Source of the DNA: a virus | Taxonomy: Duplodnaviria; Heunggongvirae; Uroviricota; Caudoviricetes | Reading direction: 5' to 3' (one strand) | Length of the DNA stretch: 64,000 nt | Virus record (IMG/VR): IMGVR_UViG_3300035501_000173 | Shown: in pieces, positions 39,788-64,000 of the stretch | Layout of the letters: each line of letters opens with the position of its first letter | How positions within the stretch are numbered: position 1 is the first letter of the stretch | The notes under the pieces: model-generated | Databases searched by the model: none | Seen by the model: only the letters and a program-made list of their open reading frames with translations | Told to the model about the DNA's origin: nothing | Position numbers and translations under genes: made by a program

Positions 39788-42700
39788 ATGGGAGAAAACT
39801 TTTCTTATGTTGTTAAATAGATATAGCCTAAAGGTAAATTAGTATATGAGTATAACCCACTTCATAACTTTAGAACTGCGAACAGCGATGGAGAACTAAA
39901 GGATTTTGATACATCAAAATTAAATTTTGATTTATCCCACCCTGTAACTATTGATTGTTAGGAATCGTATGATAAATCAATTAATTTAATTCTTAACGAT
40001 GGCACAAATATTCCAAGAATTATAAATACTAGGTTTACAGCTAGGGAGAATAATACTTATGAAAGAGTTGATAGGTTAGGAAATACTGATACTAATATAT
40101 ATGATGAAGATGAATTTACTATTGATACCTCTTTAGTAAAACGCTATATTAACATTCCAGAAGTAACCTTTAAAGGCGTTGCTTATGGTGGAGGACTTCC
40201 AGTAGGTAATTACACATTTTACTTTAAGTTATCCGACGCAGACGATAATGAAACTGATATTGTTGCTGAATCTGGCTTAGTAACAATTCACATAGGAGCC
40301 CTAAATTCACCACCATCTATTAGAGGTGGGGAGTAGAATGAAAATAGTGGTAAAATGGTTCAATTCCAATTATCAAATCTAGATTCTGGTTATGATTATG
40401 TAAAAGTGTATTATAGTAGAACTACTGGAGTTGATAATGCAACTAGAACTACCACAGCCACAAGAGTAAATAATAGATTTAGAATTAAAAATAACTATTG
40501 TTTGGTTAGCATTACAGGTAATGAATCTGTTGATGATATACCTGTATCCGAATTAAGTTAGGATTTCTTTTTAGCAAGTTCTGCAAAAGCTCAAGCTATC
40601 TGTTAGAATATGCTATTTTTAGGAAATGTTTCAAAAGCTACCGCTGATTAGGGTTTAATTAATCTTAGTTTAAATTGGCTTCCCTATTATGAATCTGAAA
40701 CACCTTCTGATATTACAGATGATTTAGGAGTTTCGTATTCAAATTATACTGGCTACTATAATACAAATAATATATACAATAAGGTTGGTTATTGGAATGA
40801 AGAGATATACCGATTTGGTGTAGTATATATAATGGATAACGGTTCGTTATCTCCTGTATTTAATATTCGTGGTATAAATGGTGTTCCAGAAATAAATGAA
40901 GAAGATTCATACACAAAATTGGACAATGACTTTAATATTGACTATGATACATAGTTAATAAATTCTGGAACCTTGGAAAATTCTGCTGGTGTATGTCGTA
41001 TTGTGGATACTTCTGGAGGATAGTATTTTAAAGTAAGACACTTTAAGTTTTGTATTGACAAAGATACTTTAGAAAAAATATAGGATAAAGGTGTAAAGGG
41101 ATATTTCTTTGTAAGGCAAAAAAGAATTCCTCTCATACTGTGTCAAGCCTTTATGATTGGTCGCGATACATATTCTGGTATTCCTGCTTGGACGCTTGAA
41201 AATACTCATGTTACTGAAACTTTTTTAGACTCACAAGGTTACTTAACTTAGAATTATGAAGAGCGTCTTATATAGGTAAATGATAATAAGTATTCTGTAT
41301 CTGTTGGATTTGCTCCAGAATATGAACTAAATCAACCCTACTATAATAACTTTTTTACTGGTGATAAAATGATTATTAGGTAGGAAACTGCGAAAGGGTC
41401 TTTGCTTGCTGCTAGTAATCATATTTACTAGTTGGATAATACATCTTACACATGGGAAAATAATTCCACTATGCAAGCTAAGGTAATTTCAATACCTGAT
41501 GGTACTAATGTTACTGATGGGAGTACTAAGTTTAAAGGAGTTGCTGGAGCTGCCGAAGAACTCAAATTTACGTATGTTAATAATAAAACTAATAAGCCCA
41601 TTAAGAAGAATTTTTCAGGAACGAAAACTACCTACACATTTTTAAATGGGCATATACAAGTTAATACCAAAGAGACAACTAGTAAAGTAGCTATTACTAG
41701 AGGATTATATGGAACTTATCTTGGAGTTTATAACAATAATCTTATCCATGACAATAGTTTAATTAATATATATATTCCTGGATATGGTACTGAAAACATA
41801 AGTGAATACTTTAATATACGTATTAACTGCGAGGATTAGTATTACGCAGTTTCTGATAGAAAAACTTTAAAGCTTGGTAGTGAAAAGACTATTATAGAAG
41901 ATGTATATAGAGGTGACTGCTTTATCAGTTAGTTTACTCATAGAATAAATAGAAACTTCTAGGATCCTGATGCACCTTGTAATGATACTATAGTAGAAGC
42001 TAGTACTTGGAGAGATAATTATGATGCTGATAAAGGAACAGCTTCTGATGTTAATAGAGGTGACGTAAATGCCATTTAGATGGGAACATATATAACATTT
42101 AGATGTTATACTACCTACAATGTAGCAATGCGTGATTGGGATAGAGGTTATCCCTCAGAAGAGTCTTTAACTGGATGTAAAAGATCTTTTTATCCATTAA
42201 GTCCTATTCGCGTAGATGGACATTATAAAATACCAGAGTCCAATTAGTTTAATTAGGGATTCTCTGCTACTACTGGAGAAAAAGCACATTTCTTATAGCC
42301 AAATGTTCCATATATAAAGAATACTTATTAGACTAGAATTATATATTCTGATATAGCACAAACAGATGCTTTTAAAAACGGATTTAGAATATTTAAAGGT
42401 GTATCCTTTAGGGATTATTCTAACTAGTACGGAGGAATAACTAAACTTGTATAGTGGTTAGATAATCTAGTTGTAATATTTGAACATGGTATTGGTATTG
42501 CTACAGTAAATGCAAATGCTTTGATACCTACTGATGATGGAACTTCTATTTCTGTTGGAGCTGTTAAAGTTATTCCAGACACATTAAAAATGTTAAGCAC
42601 AGATTATGGTACTTAGTGGTCTGAATCTGTAGTATGTTCCAATGCGTATATTTATGGAGTTGATACAGTAGCTAGAAAGATTTGGAGAACTCAAGGATCT

Positions 42701-44557
42701 GGTGTAGAATGTATTTCCGATTTCCATGTTTAGAAATTTTTAAATGAGAATATTAGTCTTGGAGAACGAGAATTAACGCCTTTAATAGGTGTTCGTAATG
42801 TAAAGTCACACTTTAATAATTACAAGAATGATGTAATGTTCACATTCTATGATAATACTTATGGTTTTGAAGAAACTGTATGGAATTTATGTTATTGTGA
42901 AACTTTAAGTTCTTTTACTACATTCTATTCTTGGCTTCCTTCTTATTCTGCTAACATTGATAATGTATTCTTTACTTTTGATCGTAACTGTTCAAAATGG
43001 GTTTCTAAATTAGCTGCTAGTACGTGTACTAAAACAGGAAATGAAGTAACTTATAATAATGATGCTTCGGGTGTATGCTTAGATAGCGTACAAATAAACG
43101 GTTCTTCTTGGAGTGCTAATTTATATTTAAGTCCTGACAGAACAGAATTGTTAGATCAAGATAAGTAGTACACCTTAGAGTTTACACTAGAGCGTGATAA
43201 TTTTGGTAATTATGCTTATTTTGAAATAGTTAATAGTACACTAAAGGTAGCGGATTATCCAGGTTTACTTAAACACTGGTTCTTAGCTGCTGATGAATCT
43301 AAAGTAAAAACTCCGTCAGAACCTTGTATAGGATTAAATATTAAATGTACTATTTAGAGTAAAAATTCCACTGGTACATCTATTATTGATCACTACACCT
43401 TAACTAATGAAGGTTATTATTCTAATCAAATCTTCTTAACATTAGAGGATATTGTAAATAACTAGTCTAGTAAAAAAGAACTAGCCAATGGATCTGTTGC
43501 TATAACTGTACAGAATCAATTAAAGCTTAATGATATTACAGTTAATTTACCAACTTTTGAAACTGCTTTCTGGAAGCATGGTTTTGCTGGAATTATAGAT
43601 ACTTAGGAAAAAATAATGCCTTGCTTGTGGTATCATAAATAGCATCCATTTGAATTTGAATTCGTTACAGGTAATGATAATGCTGGTTATAAACAGTTTG
43701 ATAACTTAGTAATATCATCTAATAATGTAGCTCCAGAATCCTTCCATTATACAATTGTAGGTGATAGCTATGATTTCTCTGACTAGAAGCCTAGTATGTA
43801 CTGGAGATAGGAGGCTACTAAATATTTCTATCAGTATAATGGTTGTGATATTTTATATGACCATAAAGTATTTGACACACCAACAAAGTATGAACCTTCT
43901 CAAGTAACTTCTAGCACTTATATAGAAAAGACTAATGATAATACTAGTTATTTAAGACATTCATCAACAGTATCAAATGTATATCGTGATACGATGATGC
44001 CTTGGATATACACTAGACAGGATACCTTTAATGAGATTGAAGACTATTATAAAAGTATAACAGCTTCTGCTTATAAAGATTATCCTAATATTACTGGGGG
44101 TGAAATAGTTTGGGATTGTTAGTTTAATCATTTTAGTATTTGTAATCACGTTAAAGCTAGGGATGTTAAAAACGTAGGAAGAACCCGTGCTAATATGCAA
44201 TACATTAATGATAAGTGGGTAATTTAGATTACTCCAATTAATGTGTATAATAGAAATTACACTTGGTTTAAAGGTTCTGACGATAAGCAACATCCTAAAT
44301 TAGTTATTAATAATATTCCTACAGAAGTATTTAATCACTTAAAGGGAACTATTGACTCCAATAAGATACCAAGTGATTTAGAGGCTTATAGAAATGATCC
44401 TAGTGTGGCATTTGATATGACACCTTGGGAATCAATTGCTAATGCAAGAAAAGAAATAAAGCTTATGGATAAACAAATAAAGACAAAAATTAGATATAAA
44501 GGAGATTAGCTGGTAAATATATTAGCTGTTTCTACACAATTTAATTCTATGGTATAA
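39788..44557 (+). CDS. tail stabilisation/muzzle-like protein, 1589 aa
   Basis: LVYEYNPLHNFR...ESYDKSINLILNDG...YWNEEIYRFGVVYI...YGVDTVARKIWRT; pieces 40355-44509 are in frame; TAATG-coupled to the next gene. Confidence 0.72.
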
Positions 44558-45849
44558 TGGGAACTTCATTTGGATCTGTTTCAGGTTCTGGAAATACTGG
44601 AGGAAGTGGAAGCTCATCATCTTTAAAGGAAAAACTATCTAATAGTGAAGCCTATAACATAGCTGTAAAAACTATAGGTGGTGTAGCAGGTTAGTTTCCC
44701 ACTCCTAATGAAAATCTAAACAAGAATACTTAGCAAATAACCAGTCTTCGTAATACAGCTTCAGATGCTTTATTATCTTCTGGTAATCCATATGCAATGG
44801 CTGGTGGTGCAGCTCTTAAAGTAATGGGTGCTACAGGTGGATTTACAGATGCTTCTGAAGGACTTGGTACTGGTACAGATAATTTAAATAAATTTGCTTC
44901 ATTAGCATTACCAGGAGCAGGTTGGTTCACTAAACCTGTTGAAAAGTATTCTGTTGGTACAGATACTCAGGTTATGCAATCTGGCTATGCAAGTACTATA
45001 AAAAATAATGAAAAGGCTGCTAAAAATGCTGGAGCTAAATTATTATTTGGACGTAGTAAAGCAAGATCTATGATACATGAAGCTAAAGCTAAAGATATGC
45101 TTATTTCTAATATTAAAGAGGAGGCTGATGATAACTATGCTTCTATGGCTAGTTTAACTTAGGCTAAATCTATGTCAGATTAGTATGCTTATGAAGGAGG
45201 TTATTAGCAAGCCTTAGCAAGAGCCGGTAAATTAGGTATGAAACTTACAAAAGCTAGACAAATAGCTAATAGATTAACTCCACTATTACCTGAATTTTAG
45301 GAAGGTGGGATAATTGAAACTGATAACCTTATTAATGAACCCGAAGAAATTGAAAAGTTCATTCCTAAAGACCCTGCAGAATTCTTTAATAATATAACAT
45401 TTGATGACGTACCGGAGTTTAAAGACGGGGGTAGAGTTATTGAAGAATCTAATATTGAAAAGTTTGTTCCAACAACTCCTGAGTAGGATGCACAATTCTT
45501 TAATAGTTTAGTATTTGATGATGTACAAGAGTTTAAAGAAGGTGGCTAGATGAATGTAATTCCTGAAGGTAATTTACATGCTAGATTACACCACATGAAT
45601 GGTGCGGATGAACTTACTAAAAAAGGTATTCCAGTAGTAGATAATGATGGTAATCAACAAGCTGAAATTGAATTAAATGAAATTATATTTAATCTTGACG
45701 TATCTACAAAACTTGAAGAACTTCATAAAAAATACAAAGAAGAAGGTAGTGACAAAGATAAAATAGCTATTGAAGCAGGTAAGTTACTTGCTGAATAGAT
45801 AATGGAAAATACAGATGATAGAACTGGATTAATTGCACAAGTTTAGTAA
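44557..45849 (+). CDS. putative cargo/ejection protein, 430 aa
   Basis: Gly/Ala-rich N-half, three F[KQ]xGG-terminated repeats, C-terminal NVIPEGNLHARLHHM...QAEIE; ends GTT TAG TAA. Confidence 0.68.
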
Positions 45850-45850
45850 G

Positions 45851-46432
45851 ATGGAAACAGTTAAAGTGACTTTAGGAAAGAAAAGCTACAAATTAAAAGT
45901 AGCATCTACTAAATAGGAACTTCGTAAAGGTTTAATGGGAGTAAATCATCTTAACGATGATGAAGGTATGTTATTTGACTTCGGAAGAGAAGGTAAACAT
46001 GAAATGTGGATGTACAATACTATAATTCCATTAGACTAGATATTTATTAATGCCGAACAAGAAGTGACTAAGGTTGCTACTAGAGAACCTTACGATGAAA
46101 CTTTAGTAGGTAAAGAAGATAGTCTATATGTAGTAGAACTAAACGCTAATTCAGGAGTAAAAGTTGGAGATGAGCTTGAATTTGATGATGATACATCTAA
46201 TTATGTAATGCGAGTACTGTCACCAGATGGTTCTACACAAATGAACTTGCAAGGTGGTGAACGCATATTTAGTAGAAAGAATACTAAAGTATTAATTAGA
46301 CAAGCTAAAAAAGCTTACACTTCTAAGTCAGATTCAGACTATAAACGCTTAGGTAAATCTGTATTTAAATTCTTATCTATTCAGGATGGAAATAAACCTG
46401 AATATGTTCAACTACCTAACTCAAAAGATTAA
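45851..46432 (+). CDS. DUF192-family protein, 193 aa
   Basis: ELRKGLMG...EGMLF...[11 protein letters not shown](Q)IFIN is the DUF192 signature, recovered only with TAG read-through. Confidence 0.8.
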
Positions 46433-46883: not shown

Positions 46884-49800
46884 ATGGCAGAACAAGAAGT
46901 AAAAAAAGTAAACATTGCTGGTAAAAGTGTTGATTATAATGAACTTGAAAGACGAGCAAAAGCTAAAGCTTATGCTTGGATGGATTACTAGGGATTGAAA
47001 GGTGATCAACGTAGGGATTTTATAGACGCTTTTAATCGCAAAATGACTGAGTTGTATGAAGGTAATGATTATGTTCCTGATGAGGCGCATATTAATTATT
47101 ACGGTAAACACTCTGGAAATAAAAAACAAGATGGTAATACCAAAGGCGGTATCTTGCGCACTGAGCGTCGCTTAGAATTTGACCCTAATAGCAGTGTAGA
47201 TACATTCTTAAATGGTATTGCAGGAGTTACCGAAGATTTAGACGAAAAAGCTAAGAGAGAGGAAGAAGAGCGTAAAGCTAAATTACCTCAATGGAATTCT
47301 TCTTTACTTGCACAAGCTGTATAGGATTCTATTTTTGGTGAAGGTAATGAATTTTCAGCAGACCAATTAATGGCTTGGGCTGATGAATTAGATCCTTACA
47401 CTAAAGGAACTCCCCGCTCCACAGCTAATCGTAGAGCATTTATAGCATCCGTAGTAAATCAATATAAGAAAGATTTACTTAATGGGAAATATAACATAAG
47501 TGACGAAGATAAAGAAGATGAATTACACAATGTAAGTTCAATCTTAGGAGGTGTATCAGGTTGGCAATTAAATAAAATTGCACCTTGGATGTCTCATCTT
47601 CTTTATACTGATGATAAATATTATGCAACTAATGAAGAACGAGACGCTGCTAAAAAGCAAGCATTAGAAGAAGCATTAGCAGAAGCAGAAACTGCATATA
47701 TTAATAATGGTACTGGTACTAACCCTTATGATAAAAGTAAAGATCCTGATAATTATAATCGAGTAGAATAGGCTAGGGGTCTAGTTTTAGATTAGCAGTT
47801 TCAAAATAAATTTGATAATTATAATGTTACTTCTAGTCGTTTAAGATCTCCTCACTGGTTACCTCGTTGGACTTATTTTAAGGATGGGAATGTATTTTCT
47901 GGCTATGATCCTAAAGGAGCCAATGGTATATTATCTTTAATTGATGCTGCTTATAAAGTGAATACTGACTACTCCGATGATGGTCGAGGTTTGGATTATT
48001 AGGGAACTGTAGGATTAGATTGGGAATGGGGGCATGATAATTATACAGGACGAGGTAAAGGTGATACATCTTTATTAGGAGTTTTACCTCAGGCTTATTT
48101 TGATTCTGACGAAATTCGGGGAAATGATGATATGCCTGACGATGTAACTCATAGTAATGTACGAGGTTATAATGTAGGACGCACCAATAATGGTGTTAAA
48201 ATGAAGTTCTTATCTGATTATGCCCACTTTGCAGTTAGCACTAATCCAAATCTTTATAGATTAAAACCAGGAACTTCCATGTTCTTATTACCAGACTTGA
48301 TTGATTGGAGTCGTGGTACTGCTTACGTTCTTAATGAGGGTGTGGATTAGAAAAATACTATAGAGCAAATCAACATAGCACCATATATTAAACAACTTAA
48401 AACTAATAATCCTGCTCTGTATAATCTTTTACTACAATCATACACTAAGGCACATAAATATAAGTGGACTTAGGATCCAACCGCTGAAACAGAAACTCCA
48501 GCAGCTGCTGTAGCATCTTAGAAAAACGGAGGACGCATTCTAAAAGCACAATTCGGTGCTGCTATGGAAATGGCTAATAGTGCTTCACAAGCTGATTTAG
48601 AAGCTTAGCAAGCACGTATCGCGATAGAGGGTTAGACGTAGTTTAATCGTGAGTTAGCTGCTTAGGATACTAAGTTATCCGCACTAGAATATGCTAGAAT
48701 TGGTGCAGCTGCTGCTGATATGGCTTCTATCGCAACTTCTTATGCTCCTGGTTATGGTACTGCAGCAGCTGCAGGTTTAGGACTAGTTTCTACAGCAACT
48801 AATTTAGTTGCAGATCTTAATGATAAATCTGTATCTACTGGAGATGCGCTCAAAGGCTTAGGAATTAATCTAGCTATGGATGTAGCTTCTTTAATCCCCG
48901 GAATAGGTACAGGTGCTGGTATTTCAAAAGTAACTAAGCCCCTTTTAAAACTGGCTCCTAAAATTTTAGCTGTTATGGGGGCAATTAATGTTGCTCCTGC
49001 CGCAATAGATTCTTTTAAGAAGCTTTGTGATGGTAAGACCCTTAATTAGGAGGACTACAAAAATATAGCTTACGGTTTAGGTGCTGTAGCCGGTATACAC
49101 AATATGGGACGTACATCCTACCTTAATCATAAATATAAGAATGCAATGCCTAAAGGTGTTGCTGCAACTAAAGGTGGTGGTACAGGAGAATTTAATGTTA
49201 AGTTTAAGAGTAATGGTTCTGAGCAAACTGTTAAACTTAGTAATACCGATATTGAAGCTATTAACAATGCTGGTGCTAAAGGAAATGAAGCTGCTCGTAC
49301 TAAATTCCGAGAAATACTTACTGGTAAAGGTGTAGATAAAACTATTGTTGATTAGGCAGAATTAGTCGGAACTAACTTTAGTGGTAGCCGTGTTAAACGT
49401 GTTTTTGATAAAAAATTATCGGGAGATGAAATCTTAAATGCTGATTCTGAGGGCAAAGCTCCAACTACAAAAGAAGTTCAGGATTATTATAAAAAACTTG
49501 TAGAGGAAAATCGTAAGTTAGTCAAATCGTACCAAACTAGTAAGCGTAGATGGAAGAGATGGATTGGTAATAACTTAAACACAGATGCTGAAATCTATGT
49601 AGGTCAGCAAGGAATGTTTAAAAATCCATTCAAGGGAAAGAAGAGCGGTCTTGAAGAATAGTATGCAGCTGTTAATAAATAGATTGCGGATGAACGAAGG
49701 GTTAGAGTTCAAAAAGAGTGGGATGAACGAAATAAACGAGTTGCTGAGGGTAAGAAATTAGCTGAAGAAGCTGGAAAAGAACGGGGTGTAGTATGGACTA

Positions 49801-52199
49801 AAGAATCTAATAAGAAATTACAAGATGATTTTGCAGCAGCGCCAGAACCTTGGGATGAGAATGCTGTCCGTGACAGAACTGTTAATGCACAAGCTGATAG
49901 TAATGCGAAGCAAGCTGCTTTAGATGCTTTAAATGCTAATCCTGTGCAGGAATTTACGGCAGCCGATGAAGGTCTAATGGCTACTAGAAAGCAGACACTT
50001 GCTGAAGCTGAAGCTAAGTTCCAACCTTATAAAGATCAAGAGAACGCAATAGTTGAAGCCCTAAACAGACACCAGTCAGATATTGATGCCCTTAAAAATG
50101 AGTAGCTAGCTTACGAACGTGAAAGTCATACTCCACAGCAAATTACACAAAGGAAAGCCGAAACCGATCAAAAGATTCAAGATTTAAAGGATGCTGTGCA
50201 ACGTTGTGCTAAGTAGCTTAATGATCATCAATCTAGTGTTGGTTATAAAAATGCTGAAAGGCAGATTACTAAAGCCACTAATGAGTTAGAAGCTAGTACT
50301 AGGGCTAAAAGTGAGTGGGAGGAATTTCAGACTAAACTAAAAGACGCGCAAGATGCTTTAGATGCTAGTAAAGCTACCGAAACTGAGGCTATAAATGCTT
50401 ATAATTAGTATTTGGCACAAAAGCAAAAAGTTGATAATATTAATAATGGAACCCTTAATCCTGCAACATTAACAGAGGATGAACTTAACGCTTTAGCAAT
50501 AGCTGATAAAAAATATTCTCCTGAAGCTCGTGCATTACAAGCACATCAAGAATTAAGGGGCAAAGTTCGAGACTACTATAAGGAACTTAAGAATCAAGGT
50601 CGGGCATCTTCTGAAAATGAGAAAGCTGCTAGAAAAACGGGATTTGCGAAAGTTGACACTTAGGTTGATTCTAATGTAAAAAGGTATGCTTCTTGGTTAA
50701 AGGATCCTATTAAAGCTAACAAAACATCTGAGTTTAAGAGGTTTATTAAAGATGTTGAAGCTAATTCTAATGGAAAACTAACTGAAAAGAAACTTGAGAA
50801 TATTCTTAAAAATGAGGCTTTGATGCAAAAGGTACGTAAGCTTTACGCCTTTAAGAGAGGAGGTTATGTCCCTTTTTATTCAGACGGAGATGAAATTAAG
50901 AAACCTAAAGAAGAAGAAACAACTTCTACAGCAGAACCCCTAACTACTTCCACCGCTGACGCTACAACAACTTCTACTGCTAACACTGAAGTCCCGGTAG
51001 TTACAACAGAAACTTCTGTATCTGTAACTCCTTACGGAACAATCTCAGGCAGTGGTAGCACCTCCGGAGGTAATAACGAAAATACATCTGGAGTTAGAAC
51101 AATCCTTAATTATGATAATGATAAGCCGGGAAATGGAAAAAAATCAAGCCTTCTTGGGAATCTAACTAATAAGTCAGACATGGCTATTTCAACACTAGAA
51201 GCTTGGAAATGGCATGATGCTAAATACAAGAATGCTAAAATTGCTGCATTAGGTAAGAAGATTAAAAACCTCCATGTAACACCATTACAAAGTAACTGGA
51301 GAATATTCTCTTCTAAACCTTTACTGGATTAGGCACAACAAGCAAGAACTGCTGGTAATCATGTAGGTCGTATGGCTGCTGCTGGTACCTCAGATCAAGC
51401 TCAAGGATTTGTTTATCAATTACATGGATAGAATAATGGTGAGCAAAATGCAAGACCTTATATCTTACAATCCGATGCTACTATTAAAGAAAATACTGAT
51501 AAGCAATGGTAGTTAGCTAATCAAAATGCTGCTAGTAGGCATGATGCTGCTGAAAAGAATGCTGCTTCTGATGTTGCTAAGTATAACTAGGATATTTTAG
51601 TTGATCAACAATTAATACATGATAATTCTACTAAAGATCAACAATTCCTTACAGCTGTGCAAAATGGTATTGCAAACTCTGATGCTTACTTTAAAGCTAA
51701 GAAACGAGCTAATTTCTTGAACAATGATGCAGAATTAGTTGCTGCTTATGATAAAATGAATACATTAAGAAAGCGACGTTCTGCAGCAGGTAATACTGTT
51801 GGATCCACTTGGACTTAGGAGGATGAAGATGCTTATATTGCAGCTAGAGATGATTACTCTGATTTACTTACTACAAAAATTCGTGAATACGATAACTTAC
51901 ATGGTAGTTCTGTAGGTCAATCATTTGCTATGCCTATTTGGAGTTATGGTTCAAACTACGGTGGGTATAATTCTAGTTCATTTAGTTTTGGTGATACTGG
52001 TAACACAACTTCTAGATTCTCATGGTTGAAAAAAGGAGGAAAAGTAGCTTCGGATTCGGAAGATAGTAAAAATAGACGTCATTCTGCTAAACAGTATTTT
52101 GAATTGTAGAAACTATTACTCACGGAAGCTAATAAAGATTAGCGTGCTATGGGTAATGGTTATGCGTATTTTAGAAAATTAATGATGTGTAGTAAATGA
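46884..52199 (+). CDS. large putative cargo/ejection protein, 1771 aa
   Basis: Pieces 46995-51332 share one frame. Gly/Ala-rich hydrophobic helices at ~48690-49100, long coiled-coil at ~49650-50700; TGA overlaps the next ATG. Confidence 0.72.
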
Positions 52200-54058
52200 G
52201 TTATATAAATAAATTCTAGAGTGGAGGGTCTTCCCTCCCTCTAGTTGATTATATGCCTTTTACTGGTGTTCAAGCTCCTGCTGCAAAACAAGCAGAAGCA
52301 AACGATGATGACATTGGTATTAAGGATATTTTAAAATTAACTAATGAATTAGATGGACTTCCTGTAGATATGGATGCTATTAAGACCTCCTTATATAACA
52401 TGTATGAAGACGCATCATTATTTAGTAATGGTCAGGTTTCTACAGGATAGTTGGTAAATACATATTTATCTGCTTTACAAAAGATTAAAGTAGCTAAATA
52501 TAATAAAGAATAGTTTGATAATGCTCAAAAAGAAGCTACTTCTAATGGAGGTTTACACGAAGTGGCAATTGATGAGCATGGAAATTTATTTGTTCAGGAT
52601 TAGGAAACAGGGTCTGTAGGATCTATAAGCTTAGCTTAGTACAATAAGCTTAAAGAAGAGGATCCGTAGAAATATGAAGCTCTTACTAATTCTAATTTAT
52701 TATATTATAGAGCAGAACATCCTGATTTTGCTTTTAAAAATAACATATTAAGAACTGTATCAAATGGTGTTGGTGAAAAGAGTGTAACTGAAACCCTTAG
52801 TAAAGTACTAGGAAGTTTTGGAACTGATACACTTACTAAACAAGGTTATTCTGAAAAAACAGCCGAGAATATTACTTGGGGAATGGAAGCTCTAAGAGAG
52901 GCTTACGAACAAGGTATGACAGTAGATGGATTATATAAATAGTCTGCTACCGAAGCTACACAAAAGGCTCAAATGAATGCTGCTTTGTAGTATATGTGGA
53001 AAACACTTCCTCAGAATATGAAAACATTCTTAGAGTATAAAAGTGGTGATACTGAGAATCCTGAAAGAGGTGCTATGAAACTAATGGCAGATTTAGCATT
53101 TAAAGGAACTAGTTCTACTAGTACATATACTTAGAGTTTAGTTAAGGATCCTAATAAATCTGGAACTGCTGGTGATCAGAATGATTTAAAGAAACAAATT
53201 GAACTAGACCCTGCTAAAGCTCTTGTATTAGGAATGGGTTATTAGAAAGACTTTGTACTTAACTCTGGAAGTAGTTATGAAGCAACTCTTAGTGGTAACT
53301 ACAGTGTCCTTACTGATCATTCTGGAGAACCTTTAGGAGAATTTTCTACTTTACGAGATGTATCTTCTGGTGCTATGGCTGGTATTCTTGATATGAATAA
53401 CGCTACATTCGGAGGAGCTAGAATTGATACCCTTGATAGAGCCTTCTTAAACAATGCTGATGTTATCGGTGTTGATTTACCGATTGATTAGCAATATTTA
53501 AATGATACGGGTAATATTAGACCCGATATTAAACTACTTGAAAAAGTAGAACAACTTCATACAGCTATTAAACAGAAAGTAATTGATGGTTCTAACCCAG
53601 ATGAAGTTAATGCTTATTGTGATAAAATTGGTTTACCTTAGATGTATTCTAATTTAGATGAGAATGGTATTCCACAACTTAATAAGAAATACTTTGCTAG
53701 ATTTGCACGTGTTACTGCTATGGTAGATGAATCTGCTTTAGCCGATGGTTAGCAAGTTGATAATACTGTACAAGAAGTTGGAGATAATAAACGTGAGAAT
53801 TTCAAAACCTATATGAAGAAAGAAAATAAGAATTATAAAATTTCTGACGGATTCTTCGGGTTAGGTAAAGATGAATTATATGAAGGTGCTATTTACATAC
53901 CTATAAGACAAGATATTATTGCTGCCTCACTCGCCGGCACTGCTAAATATAAGTTACCAGGAAATGATGCTATTAATGCAGCAAGTCGTTGGGCTGATAA
54001 CTAGGCAGCTTAGGATTATTAGGAAGCACCAACTTTAAGTGAACTATTAGGAGAATAA
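52196..54058 (+). CDS. putative cargo protein, 620 aa
   Basis: MSYINKF(TAG=Q)SGG...; joins pieces 52253 and 53813; TAA 54056-54058. Confidence 0.72.
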
Positions 54059-54064
54059 TGAATT

Positions 54065-57000
54065 ATGGCAAAGGAAAATGATTTGTTTTTAAATCAACTA
54101 GTGAATCCCGAATTCAGTGCATTTGATTTTAAAGTAGCTGGTTTAGATACAACCAATACATCCATACAAGATAAGAGTGTTTACAAAAATTTAGACTTCG
54201 TAAAGAATAATACTGCTTTACAAACAAATGGTAAGTTTGATGAAGCTAAATTTGATGCCATGTATGATTATGCAATGTCTAATTATAACTAGATGGCAAA
54301 TAATGCTGTATCTGAGGATATTGGTAGACACGCTGAATTTTTTAGAGATAACATATATGCACCAGCCGAAAAAAGAAAACAAGACTTAGGGTATTCTGTA
54401 CAGCGTGTTGCTAATCCATTACGTGAGCAAAAATCTACTGTAAGAGTTGGAGAAATTAAAGAAAATCCTTTGTCATTAAGAGAAATTGCACAAACCCAAC
54501 GTGTTTGGGATAGTAAAACTGATAGCTGGCAAGATGCTCCAAATGATTCTTTTTTCGCTAATTTTGCTGATACTAGAGTATTAGCTTAGTGGGATGAGGA
54601 TGGTACACACGAAGATCCAATTACTGGCGAAATCGTAGAACATAAGAAAGGCGACAAGAAAATAAATGATAACGGTACATATTACTATGAGAACTTAAAT
54701 GGTCGTAGTGTATATGGACGTGAAGTTCTTAGCAAAACAGACACACTCACGACTGATGGTTCAGCTTGGAATAAGTTTGATATATTCGATGCTGACGATA
54801 AGGATGAGAATATTACTAAAACTCTTCTTAGAAATGCCATTAAGGTAGTACCTGCATTTATTGGTGGTGTAGCACCTTGGTATATTGGTGCTAGAGTAGC
54901 GATGAATACAGCTAATTTAGTAGCTAAACTAGGCAATATCGTTACAGGAAATAATAATAGTTTATTTCATAATATGGAAGCCTATGTAGATTCATTAGGC
55001 TTCTCTCAATCTGATTATACTAGAGGAGGAATTTCTGGTACAGTAACTGGTGATAACCCAAACTCTTCTAAGTATATAACACCACATGCTTGGTCATTAG
55101 AAAGTATGTTGGGATTAGCTGCTGATACTTTTACATAGCTAGCAGAACAACGCTGGATTTTTAAGTATCCGATACAAGCCGTTAAAGGTAAGATGGTTTT
55201 TGATGAAGGTTTACAAGAAGCTTTTAAGAATAAAATTGTACAAGAGCGTTCTCTTAAAACTGGAAAAATGATTGCCGATGATATGGCTAAAGCTTATGCT
55301 AAGGGACTTGGAGAAGACTTTGGTGCTATGGAAGCAGAAGCACACATCATGAATAGCTTATATGCTCAGCAACAGCTAGATGCTTATTTAAAAGGTGCTC
55401 AAAAAATTGGTGAAAAACTTTCATTAGCTTACATGACTGGTATTACAGTAGCTGATTCTTATGGTGAAGCTCTAGAAGAAGGTGCAACACCTACTGAAGC
55501 CGCATTACTTACTTTAGGATATGCACTAGGAGAATATAAAATTTGTGCATCTGACTTAGGTAAGTGGATTCTCCCAGAAATGCGCATGGAACGTAATAGA
55601 TGGGAATTAATTGGAAAACGTTTAGCAGAGGCTGGTTTGGATGAAAGTTCAGCTCTACAATCTAAAACAAAAGCAAAAGCTAGTGACTGGGTTAGTAGAA
55701 TACTTAGACTTGGAAGTCAAACAGCTCTTGGTGATTACAAAAAAGCAGCTGATGGAACTTTAAAAATGACTTCTAAAGCTTTAATTGCTAATGCTCTAGG
55801 TGAAGGTACTGAGGAAGTTTCCGAAGAATTACTCTATGATTTTACTAAGGCTCTGTATAATAATACTGTATTTAAACTTACGGGTAATAATACTAAATTA
55901 TCTTCATTTGATGGTGTTTTCGATGATCGTGGTGTTGATGGTTTAGGTGATTTATTTAATCGCTACGCTCTTAACTTTGTTGGTGGTGTTATTGGTGGAG
56001 GACTTGGTGAAGCTTTACCCACTTATAGAGAAGCTTCTTAGTTTAAAAATATGGATAAGCAACAGGCTTATGAAGCTTTAGTACAATTAGTAAAGGAAGG
56101 TTATGGTGAGGACTTCAAAAAAGTTGTAAATAAGTCTACTTGGGCACCTAAAGATTTATCTTATGATATGGATGAGTCTGGTAATTTTAAACCTGCCGAG
56201 GACAAAGAACATAGTTAGAATGCAGTTATTAAAAATCTACTTAATCAACAAGTAGATATGATTGACTCTATACTTAGTTCATAGGGTGCTAAGTTATCTG
56301 ATAAGTCCTTAATCGCACGTCTTACAGATGTAAAAGATGCTCGTAAAGAGTTTAAAGCTTTAGCATTAGGACAATCTAAAATAGCTACAAAATTCATAGA
56401 AGGCTATAATCTATTATTAACAAATTTAGTTAAGCATAAAGCTACCTTAATAGGCTTAGATTAGGTTGCTAATGAAAAGTCCAAGGATTCTGCTAAACCA
56501 GAAGAAAACGCAGCTGCTCAAGAAGTAACAGAAAAACAACGTAAAGAACTTGAAGCACAAATAAAATAGGAAGAAGAAGCTTTACAAGAATATCTTAATG
56601 GTAAGAAGTCCCCGGAATTTATTAAAAGAGTATTATTTGAAGTTACTAACCCGTTAGTGTCTTAGTTTAAGAATACTACATTTATTAACTTTGTAGAAAA
56701 TAAATACAAAAAGAAAGCTAATGAATGCACAGATTAGGAACTTGAAAGTGCTAAATCAGAATGGGAGAAAGTAAAGGACTATGAAGCTGCTGACTTAGTA
56801 GATAATATATACGACTTATTTGAGGATGTTAATTTACGTTCTACGGATATTGTTAATGGTTATGTAAATCGTTATTTTGGAAACGATAATGTTGTAAATA
56901 TCTTTGGAAGAACTATTGATGACTATGCTTAGGATGTACTTGTAAAAAATGATGATAATGTAGCTTTATCAGAAGTAAAAGGTTTTGAGGAAAGTGAAGC

Positions 57001-60000
57001 AAATGGTAAACAAAACTTTAATGTTAATGTAAGCCCCTTGACTATGCTCGCCTATAGTTTAATTAGGATGGGTAAAGAGTAGGGTATAGATGTAACACGT
57101 TACCAAGATGCTTTAAAATAGAATTTTGAGGATTAGAATGGAGCCTCTCCAAAATCTCAAATGGCTGTAGGTTATCAAATGAATGATTTAATTAGTAATG
57201 CTGCCGATTCTTCCGGAATTCTTGACAATCCTCAATTATATAATGCTACATTAGATTTTATAAAAAACTCTCCTTATATTACAGTAGTACAAAGAAATCA
57301 ACTAAAGAATACTTTGAATAAAGTATTAAATGGTTTAGATCCTGAAGGTGCTAATCATGATACCTCCGTGCAAAGAATACTGGATCTTCAAGCTGCTATT
57401 GATAATAACTAGAATTACTCACCTATTCAAGAATTTATTGATGAGTTTAGTCTTAATTTAAGGGGAAATACTCAACCTAAATTATCTGAATTAATCAGCA
57501 AAATAGATGCTTAGATTAATATGAAAGGTAATGAAGGAAGTATTGAGAGTTTTAGTTTTGATGATGAGGAAACTGAGAAACAATTAGACAATGCTTTAGG
57601 TACTATAGCTATGGTAAAAGCTGTAGTAAATGCAGCAAGAAATGATAAAGCTCGTCATGGTGATGTATTTGGTTATAATAATACAGTTAATGAACTTACT
57701 CCTGGATCTAAATTAGCTGAAATTGATAGTAATGTAGCAGACACCATCTTACAAGAATTATCTTCCGAGGAAAATCGTCTTAACTATTATAAGAGAATTG
57801 TTGACTTAAACTCTAAGAATGTATTAAGAACTCACGATAGAACTGGTGTAAAAGCAAAAGTTCTTTTATATAAAAAGACAAAAGAGAGATTTTCTGCATC
57901 TAATTGGCCTCCTTCTTCTTGGAATTAGGATGCTAATCAAGAAATAAAAGACTCTTTTAATGATGATAGTTTCAAGTTACTTAATAAATTAGTAGCTGAT
58001 GATACTTAGGCAAACTATAATTTAAATCCTCAAGATACTTTATAGTTAGAGCAAGAGTGGAAATTGCTTAATGAAAAGTTGCATAAATTCTTTATTGATA
58101 ATTAGGCTAATATAGAAGACGAAAATAAATTAGCGGAACTTGCAGATATGCGAGTTACAGGTTTATATTAGTTAGATACTAGCATACTTAATCAACATTC
58201 TGAAGAAATATCCAACTCTTCTTGGTGGTGGTGGCTAGCATCAAGAGCTGCTATGGATGTAAATACTTATAAATAGTATGAGTTAAATACATTTAAGAGT
58301 AATGACTCTTTTGCACCTGTCCCTGGTTAGGAAATAGCTACAGAAATAGCTTTTTCTGCAATTACTAATAAGAAAATATTTAACTTATTTGGTAAAGCTT
58401 AGAATAAAGCTTTATAGGAATTTGTTAAAGGTCATGAGGATGAAAAACCTGGAGATCCTTTTTACGATTAGTACTTTCCTAATCGTGTTGATATGTTGTC
58501 AGAAATTGGTAGTGATTCTTCAAACTCTATTAATTATGCAGCTACGGTTCTTGCGGAAGGTATTGCAGGTTCTGGAAAATCTACAGGATTTACCAAGCAT
58601 TTAATAGACATGCTTGGAATGGATGAAAACATTAAAAAGGAAGTTCTTGGTAATATCTGGTTTGTACATACTTCTAAAGCTCAAGCTTAGAATTTAGCTA
58701 AGAGTTTGTTTGGTGAAGAAGCTGCTAATTAGTTGGCAGATAATTGTTTTTCTCACCAATCCATAATGCAGCATATTGCAGGTACTAATGATAAAGGGCA
58801 TACTTGGAATGAAACGTTTGATCCTACTACGGGAGATGTTATTATTAATCCTGATGATATAGTATAGGAATAGGGTAAGACCCTTCGATATAACTATGGT
58901 ATTAAAACTGGGATAAAAGCACCTACTTTAATAATTACTGATGAGGTTAGTCACATGTCACAACCGTCACTTGGATTAATTAGTGATTTTGTAAATGAGA
59001 CTGGTGGTGTGCATTTAACATTAGGAGATTTTGAGTAGTCAGGACTTAGGGGTATTGCCAAGGATTTAAAAATTGTAGACAATGCTGGAAATGTAGTGGG
59101 TACATCGGAAAATTACTCTTATCAATTAGATAATACTAATATAGTACATGTTCCAAAATTAGGACAATCATTACGTTCAAAAAATAAATTAAAAGATAAT
59201 AACAATGCTAAATTTAGGGAGGTTAAGAGTCTAATACTACAGAATTAGGCACCAAGTACAGTTTTAAATTATCACGAAAGTTAGGAAGAAGGTTTAATTG
59301 GTGATAAAATAATCTATAAAAATGCCATAGATTCTGATCCTAATGCGTTTGAGTAGTAGGTAGTAGACTTGTTAAAACGTACTAAAGCCTTAGGAAGTGA
59401 TAAGAAACTTGGTTATATTTACGATAAAGAATTTGATTCTAACGGTAATGAGGTTGAATCTACTACTACTAAAATTATAAAGAAACTAAATGAGTCCGAA
59501 GAATTTAAGGGTCTTGTGGATTTTAATAGTTCTTATGCTGCTTAGGGTAAGGAAAATCCATATTATGTAGTAAGTTTAAATAGGGATGTGTCTAAGGTAC
59601 AAACTCCCGAATATTTAGCGGATTTCTATACAGGATTAACTCGTGCAGAAGTTGGATCATTATTAGTACTTAATTAGGATATAGCTAACGCATTAAAAAT
59701 TTCATCTTAGCATGTTGAGAAGGCTCCTAAATTTATCATTGGTGATAATGCTATTAAAGCTTATAAGGAACGTAAGTACAATTTATATAAAGAAGTTTAT
59801 GGAGAACCAGAGGAAGGTAAAAAGCTTGTATTCTAGCAATACAAAGATCCTACTAGAACTATAATATCTCCTACAAACAATGCAGAACCAGAAGTTCCTG
59901 ACGGAGAACCAGAAATTGGCACAATAGTTCAGGATGGTGATGACGAAGAATGGGAAATCATTGGTTATGAGAAACAAAATAATGGTACTTATAAAGCTAA

Positions 60001-63000
60001 ACTGAAAAATGTTAATACAGGAAAAGAAGTTACTATAACCACTGATGAACTGGATGATTATACTACAGTAGTTTCAAATACTGGATCTAATAGTGCAGGA
60101 GGTATTACGACTGTAAAAGGTAATAGAAATGGTACAGAAGGTTTAACTAATAAAGGAGATGATGTGCAAATGATGCACCACTCTTTTAATGCTTATGAAA
60201 CTAGTTTAGTATATGACCCAAATACAAAGACTTACAAGTTTAGTGAAAACTTCCTAGAAAATCGAAAAGATAATGTGATTGGTTTAGCTAGAGTTGTTAA
60301 TGACATTACAACTTCTGATTAGGCAGCTAAATAGAAACTGTTAAGTCTGGATTCTACTGAGCTAAATGCCTTAAAGCAAGCTCACAAGCTTATATTTGAT
60401 ATTGCCAGAACTGGAACAAGTTCTGATGAAATCATAGACAGTATAAATGATGTTCTGCAAGTACGTTTTCAAGGTAAAAAGTTACCTGATGGAGCATTTG
60501 TAAGATTTGCTTACAAGTCCTGTCTACCTTACAAGGCTTTTATAGATGGTTCTGGAAAACCTGATACTACAAAAGTTAGCGCATATCATAATGAGAAGTT
60601 TGCGAAACCTTATGAAGAAAAAGTAGCACATAATGTTAATACTGATACTTAGAGTTTTTCTGATACTAATACCAGCACTATTAATATGATTGTTATTGAT
60701 AAAGATGGTAAAGAACTATTTGAAATAACTTGTGCTACTGATACTAATCCAGTAACTTTAGCTTTAACTAAAGGCTTTGAAGCAGATGCTAGTGGGTAGG
60801 ATATTAAAGCTTGGGTAACTAAAAGACGTGAAGAAATTTTGAATGATGCCAACATTGATAGTGATAAAAAGTTTTCGTAGTTAGTTGATGAGTTATATGC
60901 TGCTTTATTTAATCCTAACGAATTAGGAAAGCATTCACAAGCTAAAAAACTTATTCACCAAATAGATTTATTCTGGGCACATCAGAAAATTATGATGGGT
61001 AATATAAAATTCCTAACTACTGAGGATGCTAATGGTAATAAAGATTGGTTAATTCCCGGACGTGATTGGGAATCTAGTGGTGTTATTATCAATGACTCCG
61101 AGAATATTTCTATGACTAATAACTTACCTTATTATGCACAATATGGTGGAGAGTGGTTAAAATTTTCTGATATAGAGAGGGAAGGTGCTATATCCATGTG
61201 TGGCAAAGTTCTCATGGCTACAGCAAATACAAGAATAAATAAAAAGAATGGTGCCGTTGTAGAAATTAAAGCAGGAAAACCATTTGTAATTGTTTCTGAT
61301 GATACCAATTCTTATAATAATCAATTTACAACCCCTTAGTAGTGGATGGAAGCTTTGTATGATGAGAATGCAACTCATGTAACTGCTGTATACATTGAAC
61401 CACCTTCTACGGACTTTGGTGGTTATATGCAATATCTTGTATAGTACTATGGCAATACAGCAACTACATCGGATCGTATTGGTACAGCTTCAACGTCTTA
61501 TAGAATATTAAGAGAATTAATTAAATCTACAGAAGGTAAGAAGTTTTTACGAGAGCGTTTTGAAAAATTGTACCAATATAAACAACCTACACAAGTTGAT
61601 GAAGGCTTGGCATCTTTAGAAAAAGTTTTAGACCAGTTGGATAGCTTAGAGGGTAAAGTTACTAGTAGCAATGAAAACGCTGTAGTTGATTTACTAAAGT
61701 CTAGAGTAGTTGATGAATACGCTACTAAAGAATCTAGACCTAATTATATTACTAATATAGTTCGCTTGTATCCTAATACTACAATAGGAAGTTCTATTGA
61801 TAGAGTATTGCGATTTGTAGTTTAGGGTTATTATCCAATTAATAAGGTTCCCGCTGATTTAGCTTTTGAAAAATTAAGTTCGGCTAATGCCCAGAATAAT
61901 ATAAAAACTATTGATGATTTAATTAAATAGGGATCTACTTATCGTAGAGGTATATTTAGAAAAGTTAGTTATATACAGGCAAATACTGGCGTTCAGTATA
62001 AGGATTTCCGAGAAACTACATTGCCTATTAACGAGGCTTGGTTTAACGCAAGAATTGATACTGGTGCATGGAGAACAGTAGGTGATAGAGCTGTAGAATA
62101 TCAATCCTAGAAAGATGCTATGTTACTTGGAGTAGGTAGAGCTAAAAAGATTGATTATACTGACCACGAAATGTATGTAAAAGAAGATATGAAATCATTA
62201 GCTGATCCACCTAAAGTAGTTAAAAAGCAAACTTCAATTTCTACAGTAGATTTATTTAAAAGTTTTGATATTAAAGGTAAGGATACAATAGAGTCTTTAT
62301 CTAAAAAGAGTCGCACTTATTTATTATAGAAATACATTGATACTAATTTATCTGGAGCTGGTATAACAGTTAATAACATTACTGCGGATAAGATAGATCC
62401 TGCTAAATTTAAAACTATGTTTGATACAGCTTTAAACAATAAAGAAATATCTTATGTAGAAAATGGAACTATCTTAATTACTCCAGAGGATTTAAAACCA
62501 AATATTTTACGCACTAGTGAGACATTTAAAGGTTTCTTTGAAATTACTCCGGGTGTGTTGGGTTGTACTATAGAAGATTCTGCGGGTAATGAAACTAAAT
62601 ATAGCTTAGCCTTTAATATTGAAATTAAAAATAATAAACATTGTATAAAAGATATTGCGAGTACGCTTTATACCCCAACTACTAATCCACCATCAACAGG
62701 ATTAAATTGGAATAGTGTTGATGATGTTCGTTAGGCTATCATTACAAAATATGGTGCAAATACTAAGGTTACGAATGAGACAGCCACTTAGTTATATGCA
62801 AGATATACTGCGGCTACTAATAATAGCGTATTAACGATAGACGATATAATTAATTCTACAGATGTATTGTATCAAAATCCTGACGGGTCTTAGGTATTAT
62901 CTTCATTAGCAGACGTAGTCCATAGTATTGAAGATAATGCTACTGATGATTACAAAAATGTTATGGACTATCTTAGAGATCCTTCTGGTAAGCTTTTTGG

Positions 63001-63931
63001 TTATGAGATAGCTTCTACTGATATTGGTAAACCTCACAAGTACTATCAAATTAATAAATACGATGTTGATGCTTCTGGAAATCTAATATTAGATACTAGT
63101 GAAACCACGTTATAGGATTTTTATAATGCTATAAATGAAGCATAGAATTTCCTCCAAACTAATCATATAACTAAGTATTCGGATACTGTTATTAGTCACA
63201 TTACAGGTCTGGCTGCAAAAAATTTTCATACCTCTGGTTTTAACTATAAATCTGAACTTGCTTTAGCTGTAGATTCTAGTGGTGAAAAATACTTAATATC
63301 TAAGTAGGATATTGTAGACAAAATGAATATATCAGACTTTGGGTTTACTGAAGATAATTTTGCAGAACTCGATTTAGCTAATCATACTTATAAAGATGAG
63401 GATGGTAATGTTAAAACATTTAATGGTGATTGGGTATTCACTCCTACAGGTGATGGTTCTTATAAGTTAGAAAATAAAACTATTAGTACTACTAAGACAT
63501 TTATTGGTTTGGATGGTGTTGAGGTTGATCTTGAAAATTTAACTCCGGAAAATAGTATAATTTTAGATTCATTTGACTCATTTGGGGAGGGGTCTTAGCT
63601 CTCAGCGGACTTACAATTTCTCGGAATAACCAAGGGCTCTGGGCCTATCGCATTTAGTAACGACTTACTAGAAAGTATAGTTGCATCTATTAACGCGGCT
63701 AAACTTATTGATGTAAGTGATTCTATAAACAATGAGTTGAAATCTAAATTAAATTAGACTAAGTCTAATTTTGATAAACTTGTTAATAGGGCTAAGGGAT
63801 TAAGCCCCACAGATACATCAATGATTGCGATTCAAAATAGAATGAAAGAGTATATAAACTATTACAATTTTTTGAATGCTCTATTATATAAATTAGGGAT
63901 AAACCCAGATGAAGGGACAAGATGTAATTAA
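54065..63931 (+). CDS. giant virion-associated protein with internal superfamily-1 helicase/ATPase domain, 3288 aa
   Basis: The plus-strand fragments 54065, 54293, 54902, 55193, 57161, 57521, 58493, 60992, 61568, 62120, 62417 and 63323 are in one frame. SF1 motifs GIAGSGKST (58559), IITDE (58940), GDFEQ (59024-59038), AQGKE (59540-59554), YTGLTRA (59627); TAA 63929-63931. Confidence 0.82.
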
Positions 63932-63967: not shown

Positions 63968-64000
63968 ATGGCATGTTCACTAGACATAAATGAAAAAGTT
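63968..64000 (+). CDS. start of the next gene (MACSLDINEKV...), truncated by the window end
   Basis: ATG after an AT-rich spacer; open to the window end; only 11 codons visible. Confidence 0.45.
   Translation, partial: MACSLDINEKV

Follow-up and report, generated by a model that had tools for sequence, protein, structure and literature searches.

The DNA considered here is a stretch of 64,000 nucleotides (the window) which corresponds to bases 11135-75134 of the 109,382-bp IMG/VR virus record IMGVR_UViG_3300035501_000173, estimated to be about 60% complete. Close to its end, at 54065-63931, lies a gene for a giant protein (P0001), in the middle of which the original prediction had placed a complete superfamily 1 (SF1) helicase, and directly after it begins a second giant gene with features of an RNA polymerase (RNAP). 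Does the first giant really contain a helicase, and what could such an enzyme be doing next to the polymerase?

The gene can only be read under a modified genetic code:

54065-63931, plus strand: giant protein gene P0001, 3,288 amino acids (aa) with TAG read as Gln, 59 TAG codons.

This interval is one open frame only when its 59 in-frame TAG codons are translated as Gln. Translation with table 11 leaves no frame longer than 282 aa. The helicase part and its motifs are located as follows:

58304-59719, plus strand: predicted SF1B helicase domain with two RecA-like domains, approximately aa 1414-1885 (sequence profile, AlphaFold2 model, Foldseek and VIA-align).
58328-58330, plus strand: TAG codon of the upstream invariant Gln, Q1422 (aligned homologues).
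58559-58582, plus strand: motif I (Walker A) GIAGSGKS; G1499, G1502, G1504 and K1505 invariant.
58940-58945, plus strand: motif II (Walker B) D1626-E1627; invariant.
59024-59038, plus strand: motif III GDFEQ; G1654, D1655 and Q1658 invariant, Q1658 encoded by TAG.
59156-59176, plus strand: motif IV-like KLGQSLR; K1698 and R1704 invariant.
59543-59554, plus strand: motif V QGKE; Q1827 encoded by TAG and at least 90% conserved, G1828 and E1830 invariant.
59630-59644, plus strand: motif VI TGLTR; T1856 and R1860 invariant.

All five motif strings that had been reported between 58550 and 59650 were found inside that span: GSGKST (aa 1502, nt 58568), ITDEVS (aa 1624, nt 58934), GDFEQS (aa 1654, nt 59024), AAQGKE (aa 1825, nt 59537) and GLTRAE (aa 1857, nt 59633).

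An exhaustive HMMER search over 1.84 billion representative proteins has found 90 relatives of this giant. About 70 of them are full-length (2.6-3.5 kaa) and carry the domain at the same place, approximately aa 1320-1980; the full-length alignment of the family (A2) is collinear, the N-terminal region included. When 54 domains with 23-42% identity to that of P0001 were aligned, the invariant columns turned out to be exactly the SF1 catalytic set: GxxGxGK of motif I, DE of motif II, GDxxQ of motif III, K...R of motif IV, GxE of motif V and T...R of motif VI. The upstream Gln (Q1422) is nearly invariant in the same alignment. The catalytic motifs are intact and under purifying selection, and ATP-dependent 5'-3' translocation or unwinding can be predicted for the domain.

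A profile built from these 54 domains was compared with the PDB, and the top matches were all SF1 helicases: MERS nsp13 (E 1e-7), followed by HelD, Upf1/NAM7, SARS-CoV-2 nsp13 and RecD. The AlphaFold2 model of the domain has a mean predicted local distance difference test score (pLDDT) of 87.8 and a predicted template modelling score (pTM) of 0.87. Foldseek matched it to RecD2, RecD, nsp13, Dna2, Upf1, Sen1 and Dda at probability 1.00, with E ~1e-10 for the first four, so the helicase fold looked for in this region is present in the model. Judging from the model and the profile, aa 1414-1885 or so form a complete SF1 helicase fold, and the original prediction held in this central point.

Single-sequence methods, on the other hand, would hardly have recognised it. 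In Pfam, P0001 matched AAA_30 at 14.9 bits (E 0.022), under the gathering cut-off of 27 bits, and one relative gave weak AAA_19 and AAA_30 matches. No PHROGs family was matched by P0001, phmmer of the single domain gave no match in the PDB, and a single-domain search of IMG/VR returned no relative. With tblastn, the domain found MT835470 as the sole match among 50,697 phage records. We regard the domain as a divergent branch of SF1, its membership of the superfamily being based on profile and fold.

The domain had been called UvrD/RecD-like. SF1 membership stands, while the subgroup is better stated as SF1B (Dda/Pif1/RecD2/Upf1-like), since the sequence-profile matches, the top Foldseek matches and the top structural scores all point there. 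In VIA-align, DSH9 came first (Z 19.6, root-mean-square deviation 4.2 over 321 aligned residues), then T4 Dda (Z 18.9, ~300 residues), with UvrD (Z ~16.5), Pif1 (Z 15-16) and RecD2 (Z ~14.5) lower. The preference over SF1A has a modest margin, UvrD with Z 16.6 being only ~3 under Dda. T4 Dda, DSH9, Pif1 and RecD2/RecD share with the P0001 domain the two-RecA fold (Z 14-19.6 over 260-320 residues) and intact motifs I-VI, but the sequences are only 13-18% identical, and those enzymes are free-standing proteins of 400-750 aa or subunits of RecBCD, whereas the P0001 core is embedded in 3,288 aa.

The reading of TAG as Gln is itself testable in the alignment. Across the 33 rows of A2 (P0001 included), the TAG codons of Q1422, Q1658 and Q1827 align to Gln in 33, 33 and 31 rows, respectively, which bears out the claim that invariant helicase glutamines are encoded by TAG. 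Taking all 59 TAG sites together, the residue aligned most often is Gln (18%, the background being 4.7%), and the residue pattern at these sites is the same as at the CAA/CAG sites of the gene. The TAG load is characteristic of a whole block: 59 codons in the helicase giant gene, 79 in the RNAP gene, the plus-strand late block being TAG-rich in general. The minus-strand block, which holds PolA, DNA and RNA ligases, Thy1, a dNMP kinase and a sigma-70-like factor, has 0-1 TAG per open reading frame (ORF). The helicase giant is a recoded gene of the late type, and we expect it to be expressed late because it belongs to the TAG-dense plus-strand block and not to the nearly TAG-free replication block. 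No transfer RNA (tRNA) gene of any kind, and thus no amber suppressor, was found in the 109 kb of this record; a suppressor tRNA may lie in the part of the genome outside it.

The surroundings of the gene, on the plus strand, are as follows:

39788-44557, plus strand: crassvirus muzzle protein gene (PF25731, E 3.4e-33).
45833-46432, plus strand: DUF192 protein gene, 199 aa (PF02643, E 1.6e-22).
46884-52199, plus strand: 1,771-aa gene at the C1 position, ending in ...LMMCSK before the stop codon; no family match.
52196-54058, plus strand: 620-aa gene at the C2 position; ~610-640 aa in four of five contexts of relatives.
63968-64000, plus strand: start of the putative RNAP giant gene (P0002, 3,921 aa), which runs off the window; DYDID at aa 2522.

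The full order is muzzle, 430 aa, DUF192, 99 aa, 1,771 aa, 620 aa, helicase giant, 3,921-aa giant, 361 aa and 1,655 aa. A DUF192 gene stands at the same place, between the muzzle and the cargo-type genes, in two distant relatives (L022, L024).

The original prediction had asked whether the gene starting at 63968 contains the DxDxD motif of RNAPs, and it does: the 3,921-aa product includes LQGSDYDIDKVSLLG. The corresponding giant of a relative keeps the motif (LQGSDLDIDKVSLLG), and GSDYDIDK of P0002 matches GSDFDVDK of crAss001 gp50 (LSGSDFDVDKLYIML; BLAST E 0.04 over the motif). P0002 had no sequence match in Pfam, PHROGs or the PDB. We consider it to be a homologue of the DxDxD RNAPs because of the GSDxDxDK motif and two short stretches which BLAST aligned collinearly with gp50. 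The major head protein of this genome matches phrog_11589, is 26% identical to the proteins of cr60_1 (Suoliviridae), cr109_1, cr113_1 and cr4_1, and shares 58-60% identity with those of two unannotated gut phage scaffolds. With its muzzle, a crAss-type major head protein and a DxDxD giant RNAP, the genome can be assigned by sequence to the crAss-like phages (Crassvirales), more abundant in the human gut than any other viruses.

The last gene of the order deserves mention as well. Its product, a TAG-recoded late protein of 1,655 aa (G000 87957-92924, L003:1089-6056), has a PDDEXK_1 match at aa 183-360 (E 5e-7). This PD-(D/E)XK gene ends the late block, so that the helicase giant and a nuclease giant flank the RNAP giant.

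The link between helicase and polymerase genes is conserved. In all five other family contexts, taken from distant members, a giant gene directly follows the helicase giant. The DxDxD motif was checked in L006, L007 has the same gene order, L010 has a 2,275-aa ORF at this place, and in L022, L023 and L024 the following giants exceed 3,400 aa and are cut by the locus end. In four of the five contexts the gene before the helicase giant encodes ~610-640 aa, its counterpart in L022 being 1,212 aa long. One of the contexts (L024) begins at a muzzle gene and has the same order as the genome studied here. One family cluster comprises 1,393 sequences, the contigs that carry them reaching 190 kb in length. 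Contigs of this size and a cluster this large are consistent with the Zeta group which Yutin et al. (PMC7886860) described among the crAss-like phages.

A possible answer to the question of function comes from biochemistry. The virion RNAP of phage phi14:2, gp66, transcribes single-stranded DNA (ssDNA) or denatured phage DNA efficiently and double-stranded DNA poorly, and QDE-1, which is structurally related to it, depends on the helicase QDE-3 and on RPA (Drobysheva et al., bioRxiv 10.1101/2020.03.07.982082). QDE-1 and gp66 are two-barrel, ssDNA-preferring RNAPs, and P0002 is a putative homologue of that class via its GSDxDxDK motif. QDE-3 is a cellular helicase of the RecQ type (SF2), whereas the P0001 domain is SF1B-like and its presumed link to the RNAP is one of gene adjacency. 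The reading which we favour, and to which we give about an even chance of being right, is that the giant is the Zeta-lineage counterpart of the cargo giant encoded at the gp47 position of crAss001, carrying a co-injected helicase which opens the duplex for the RNAP. The helicase giant would be made late, once the phage has switched TAG to Gln, and would be packed in the capsid beside the two-barrel RNAP encoded by the next gene. It would then be ejected into the cell with the DNA or ahead of it, and would translocate along one strand of the entering genome at the expense of ATP. The duplex opened in this way would supply the single-stranded template preferred by the RNAP for early transcription. 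A co-delivered duplex opener appears to be the simplest explanation since the protein is late-made, its catalytic residues are conserved and its gene always directly precedes that of the RNAP. Three roles had been suggested for an injected translocase, namely DNA entry, unwinding for the virion RNAP and countering host defences; these are indistinguishable by sequence, but the phi14:2 RNAP biochemistry favours unwinding. A DNA rather than an RNA substrate, and cooperation with the RNAP, belong to the inferred part of our reading.

Is the helicase giant a virion protein? In crAss001, mass spectrometry has identified gp45, gp46, gp47, gp49 and gp50 as components of the virion (PMC10172136). The gene order there is muzzle (gp44), C1 (gp45), C2 (gp46) and gp47, with the RNAP (gp50) nearby, and the helicase giant occupies the gp47 position, after the positions of muzzle, C1 and C2. 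Like P0001, gp47 ("RNA-polymerase-associated" cargo) is a giant, though it has no helicase domain, and a Walker A pattern (G.G.GK[ST] or G....GK[ST]) was not found in it. Three features of P0001 bear on the comparison:

55802-55816, plus strand: EGTEE motif, aa 580-584; E580, E583, E584, E587, E588 and D592 invariant or nearly so.
55982-55999, plus strand: GGxxGG of a Gly-rich helix, aa 640-645; invariant in the family.
63923-63925, plus strand: conserved C-terminal Cys, C3287, in the tail ...GTRCN before the stop codon (family alignment, tail counts).

The EGTEE motif (from nt 55802) and the Gly/Ala-rich N-terminal part are present as described in the original prediction, Gly and Ala together making up 24% of aa 401-600 and 9-17% of other parts of the protein. 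EGTEE had also been called typical of ejection proteins. Such a general typicality could not be established; an invariant EGxEE was found in this family and the gp47 family only. The gp47 family likewise has a Gly-rich hydrophobic helix ~60 aa after EGxEE, and the gp47 tail, ...ALRCNS, resembles that of P0001.

The Cys near the C-terminus is widespread. The last Cys is located 1-15 residues from the end in 33 of 33 helicase giants, with a chance expectation of ~3.8% per sequence, which is this low because the helicase giants are very Cys-poor. All six gp47-family proteins that were examined likewise carry a Cys close to the end; in the gp47-type proteins of IAS virus, cr85_1, cr111_1, cr106_1 and in the "structural protein" of phi17:2 it falls within the last 1-5 residues. 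Within our genome, four of the six genes of the block that starts with the 1,771-aa gene encode a Cys in the last five residues, against 2 of 41 other ORFs; the tails are ...MMCSK (1,771 aa), ...TRCN (helicase giant), ...GKPC and ...EKCD, the 3,921-aa and 361-aa genes being included. This tail may be a signal for cargo selection or packaging, or serve cross-linking. Taken together, EGxEE, the Gly-rich helix and the Cys tail give moderate support, at the level of sequence, to a gp47-type cargo identity. Virion packaging and injection of the helicase giant can thus be presumed from the synteny with crAss001, the TAG recoding typical of late genes and the motif-level likeness to gp47.

Several observations weigh against this picture. 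Comparison of the family with gp47, gp49, gp50 and a six-member gp47 profile by hhalign gave P-values of 0.005-0.5 and probabilities of at most 7%, and a search of this genome with the gp47 profile returned no match. The six members of that profile came from phage records, the homologue search having given only sequences 96-99% identical; the top alignment to it, though not significant, falls exactly on the EGxEE motif. Pairwise BLAST of the 620-aa protein against gp46 and of the 1,771-aa protein against gp45 was not significant either. The helicase core, folded and ~470 aa in size, could travel through the tail only after unfolding. In L006 and L007, which stand for abundant Zeta-like species and have contigs of 127-190 kb, the block is 1594-612-2689 (helicase)-3092 (RNAP)-361; it uses the standard code and comes after NUDIX, CTP-transferase-like and YqeY genes instead of a muzzle gene. 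Both the recoding and the placement of the block vary within the helicase-giant family. The helicase domain of P0001 was not found in crAss001, phi14:2, IAS virus, cr85_1, cr106_1, cr60_1 or phi17:2, which comprise five Steigviridae (phi14:2 among them), one Suoliviridae and a Cellulophaga phage (phi17:2), while the positive control, MT835470, was recovered with E 1e-49. Hence the RNAPs of these seven phages manage without the domain, and it is, by this comparison of sequences, a lineage-specific feature of the giant. Finally, the top sequence-profile matches include RNA helicases (nsp13, Upf1).

The last point leads to a reading in which the injected protein has RNA or RNA-DNA hybrids as its substrate, assisting the virion RNAP in transcript release, termination, R-loop removal or polymerase recycling in the manner of Sen1, Upf1, HelD or the ATPases which poxvirus cores contain together with RNA polymerase. 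Such a role would suit the fixed synteny with the RNAP gene, the best profile matches (nsp13, Upf1/NAM7, HelD) and the presence of the HelD-RNAP and Sen1 structures among the matches (Z 15-16.5). Yet the highest structural scores belong to the DNA helicases Dda and DSH9 (Z ~19) and to Pif1 and RecD2, no RNA-binding accessory domain was recognised in Pfam and PDB profile searches of P0001, and the documented limitation of crAss-type RNAPs is template opening, not release; we see this as an unlikely alternative. The placement of a PD-(D/E)XK giant at the end of the same block allows for quite another function, that of a late non-virion enzyme which pairs with the 1,655-aa protein as a helicase-nuclease similar to RecBCD/AddAB or Dna2 and takes part in recombination, the processing of concatemers, the breakdown of host DNA or protection from host nucleases. 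The best Foldseek matches include RecD and Dna2, and besides the PDDEXK_1 match of this last late gene (E 5e-7) its counterpart in phage Lera bears the label "exonuclease V". However, the RNAP giant and the 361-aa gene lie between the two presumed partners, the replication enzymes of this phage sit in the unrecoded block on the opposite strand, and the gene position, N-terminal motif and C-terminal Cys tail of the helicase giant resemble those of the virion cargo gp47, making the pairing unlikely.

In T7 and N4, enzymes are known to drive the entry of the genome, and an injected motor could similarly draw the genome into the cell or clear host proteins from it, transcription support being secondary. 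The gene is located in the cargo block beside candidate channel-forming proteins, and its product appears to contain a conserved ATP-driven translocase. But SF1B enzymes track single strands, and to pull a duplex such an enzyme would have to be anchored in an unusual geometry; hydropathy, with a maximum of 1.35, gave no sign of a membrane anchor, and the tight link is to the RNAP gene. Genome entry as the main function thus seems improbable to us. As for the helicase-like core being a degenerate, non-catalytic scaffold of a structural protein, the sub-threshold Pfam match (AAA_30, 14.9 against 27 bits) could be taken that way, but the catalytic residues of motifs I, II, III, V and VI are invariant in homologues with 23-42% identity, and because of this invariance we find an inactive scaffold hardly credible.

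If co-injection and duplex opening for the RNAP are correct, a broader proposal can be made, though a more tentative one: the helicase and RNAP giants, together with the proteins encoded beside them, may constitute one self-contained injected machine, with the terminal Cys (plus EGxEE in the gp47-type proteins) marking crassvirus proteins for capsid storage or ejection. Genome entry could then be coupled to transcription, and Zeta-like crassviruses would be the first known case of phages whose own helicase enters the cell together with the genome. The phi14:2 RNAP study left the question of how such a polymerase starts on an injected double-stranded genome, and a conserved helicase encoded directly before the RNAP in the cargo block would be a concrete, testable answer for one large lineage. 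A packaged protein would be a virion-delivered helicase and provide a biochemical handle on the giant "dark" cargo proteins, and the Cys tail which it shares with gp47-type proteins could reflect a signal used by cargo in general.

The helicase giant is not new as an object, as labelled relatives exist. Zeta phage Lera has an 8,346-nt ORF 191 labelled "RecD-like protein" (Babkin et al. 2025, PMC12386605, Table S1). It follows a 1,887-nt gene (~630 aa) and precedes giants including the RNAP, with the "exonuclease V" giant coming last (PMC12386605); the Lera RNAP gene is interrupted by a homing-endonuclease gene (PMC12386605, Table S1). Through the annotation table alone, ORF 191 can be likened to our gene as the same kind of giant in the same position before the RNAP, and the "exonuclease V" giant appears as the counterpart of the 1,655-aa PD-(D/E)XK protein. 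Lera, however, uses TGA for Trp, while the P0001 gene is TAG-recoded and longer (3,288 aa). The UniProt/BFVD entries A0A8S5RTY8 ("RecD-like protein") and A0A8S5TKT5 ("Helicase") match the model of the N-terminal region with E 9e-26 and 3e-22. In the literature on the family we found only the label "RecD-like/Helicase" and no discussion of function.

Outside the helicase domain, three more features were delimited:

54065-56164, plus strand: conserved N-terminal region, aa 1-700; long helices come after a small alpha/beta part (alignment A3).
54836-54892, plus strand: most hydrophobic segment, a Gly/Ala-rich helix, aa 258-276 (Kyte-Doolittle 1.35).
59855-63931, plus strand: weakly conserved C-terminal 1,350 aa with conserved islands, including RIDxxNGL at approximately aa 2067-2073.

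Conservation within the family is highest in the N-terminal 700 aa, with 100-residue bins peaking at aa 1-300. For the AlphaFold2 model of this region (pLDDT 79.8), the best Foldseek match in the PDB had E 0.4 and was not significant, and a wide VIA-align comparison gave helical-hairpin matches only (Z of 8 or less). No transmembrane helix is predicted, the maximum Kyte-Doolittle value of 1.35 being below the rule-of-thumb cut-off of ~1.6. A membrane-anchored motor was considered and dropped on these grounds. Profile searches of Pfam and the PDB with aa 690-1420, in the middle of the protein, and with the C-terminal aa 1930-3288 returned no match.

Two further observations concern other proteins. 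The near relative MT835470.1 contains at ~3375-3767 a second, free-standing frame of 456 aa with weak matches to the helicase profile (E 3e-5, at motifs II-III), which is probably a separate replication-type SF1 helicase; a second copy was not found in the 109 kb of our genome. The sigma-70-like factor of the minus-strand block is a 286-aa protein (G000 102384-103244, L004:9460-10320) with sigma-70 regions 1.2, 2, 3 and 4, each of which scores over its Pfam cut-off. The protein has the appearance of a complete phage sigma factor, encoded in the unrecoded early/replication block of a phage which also has its own RNAP.

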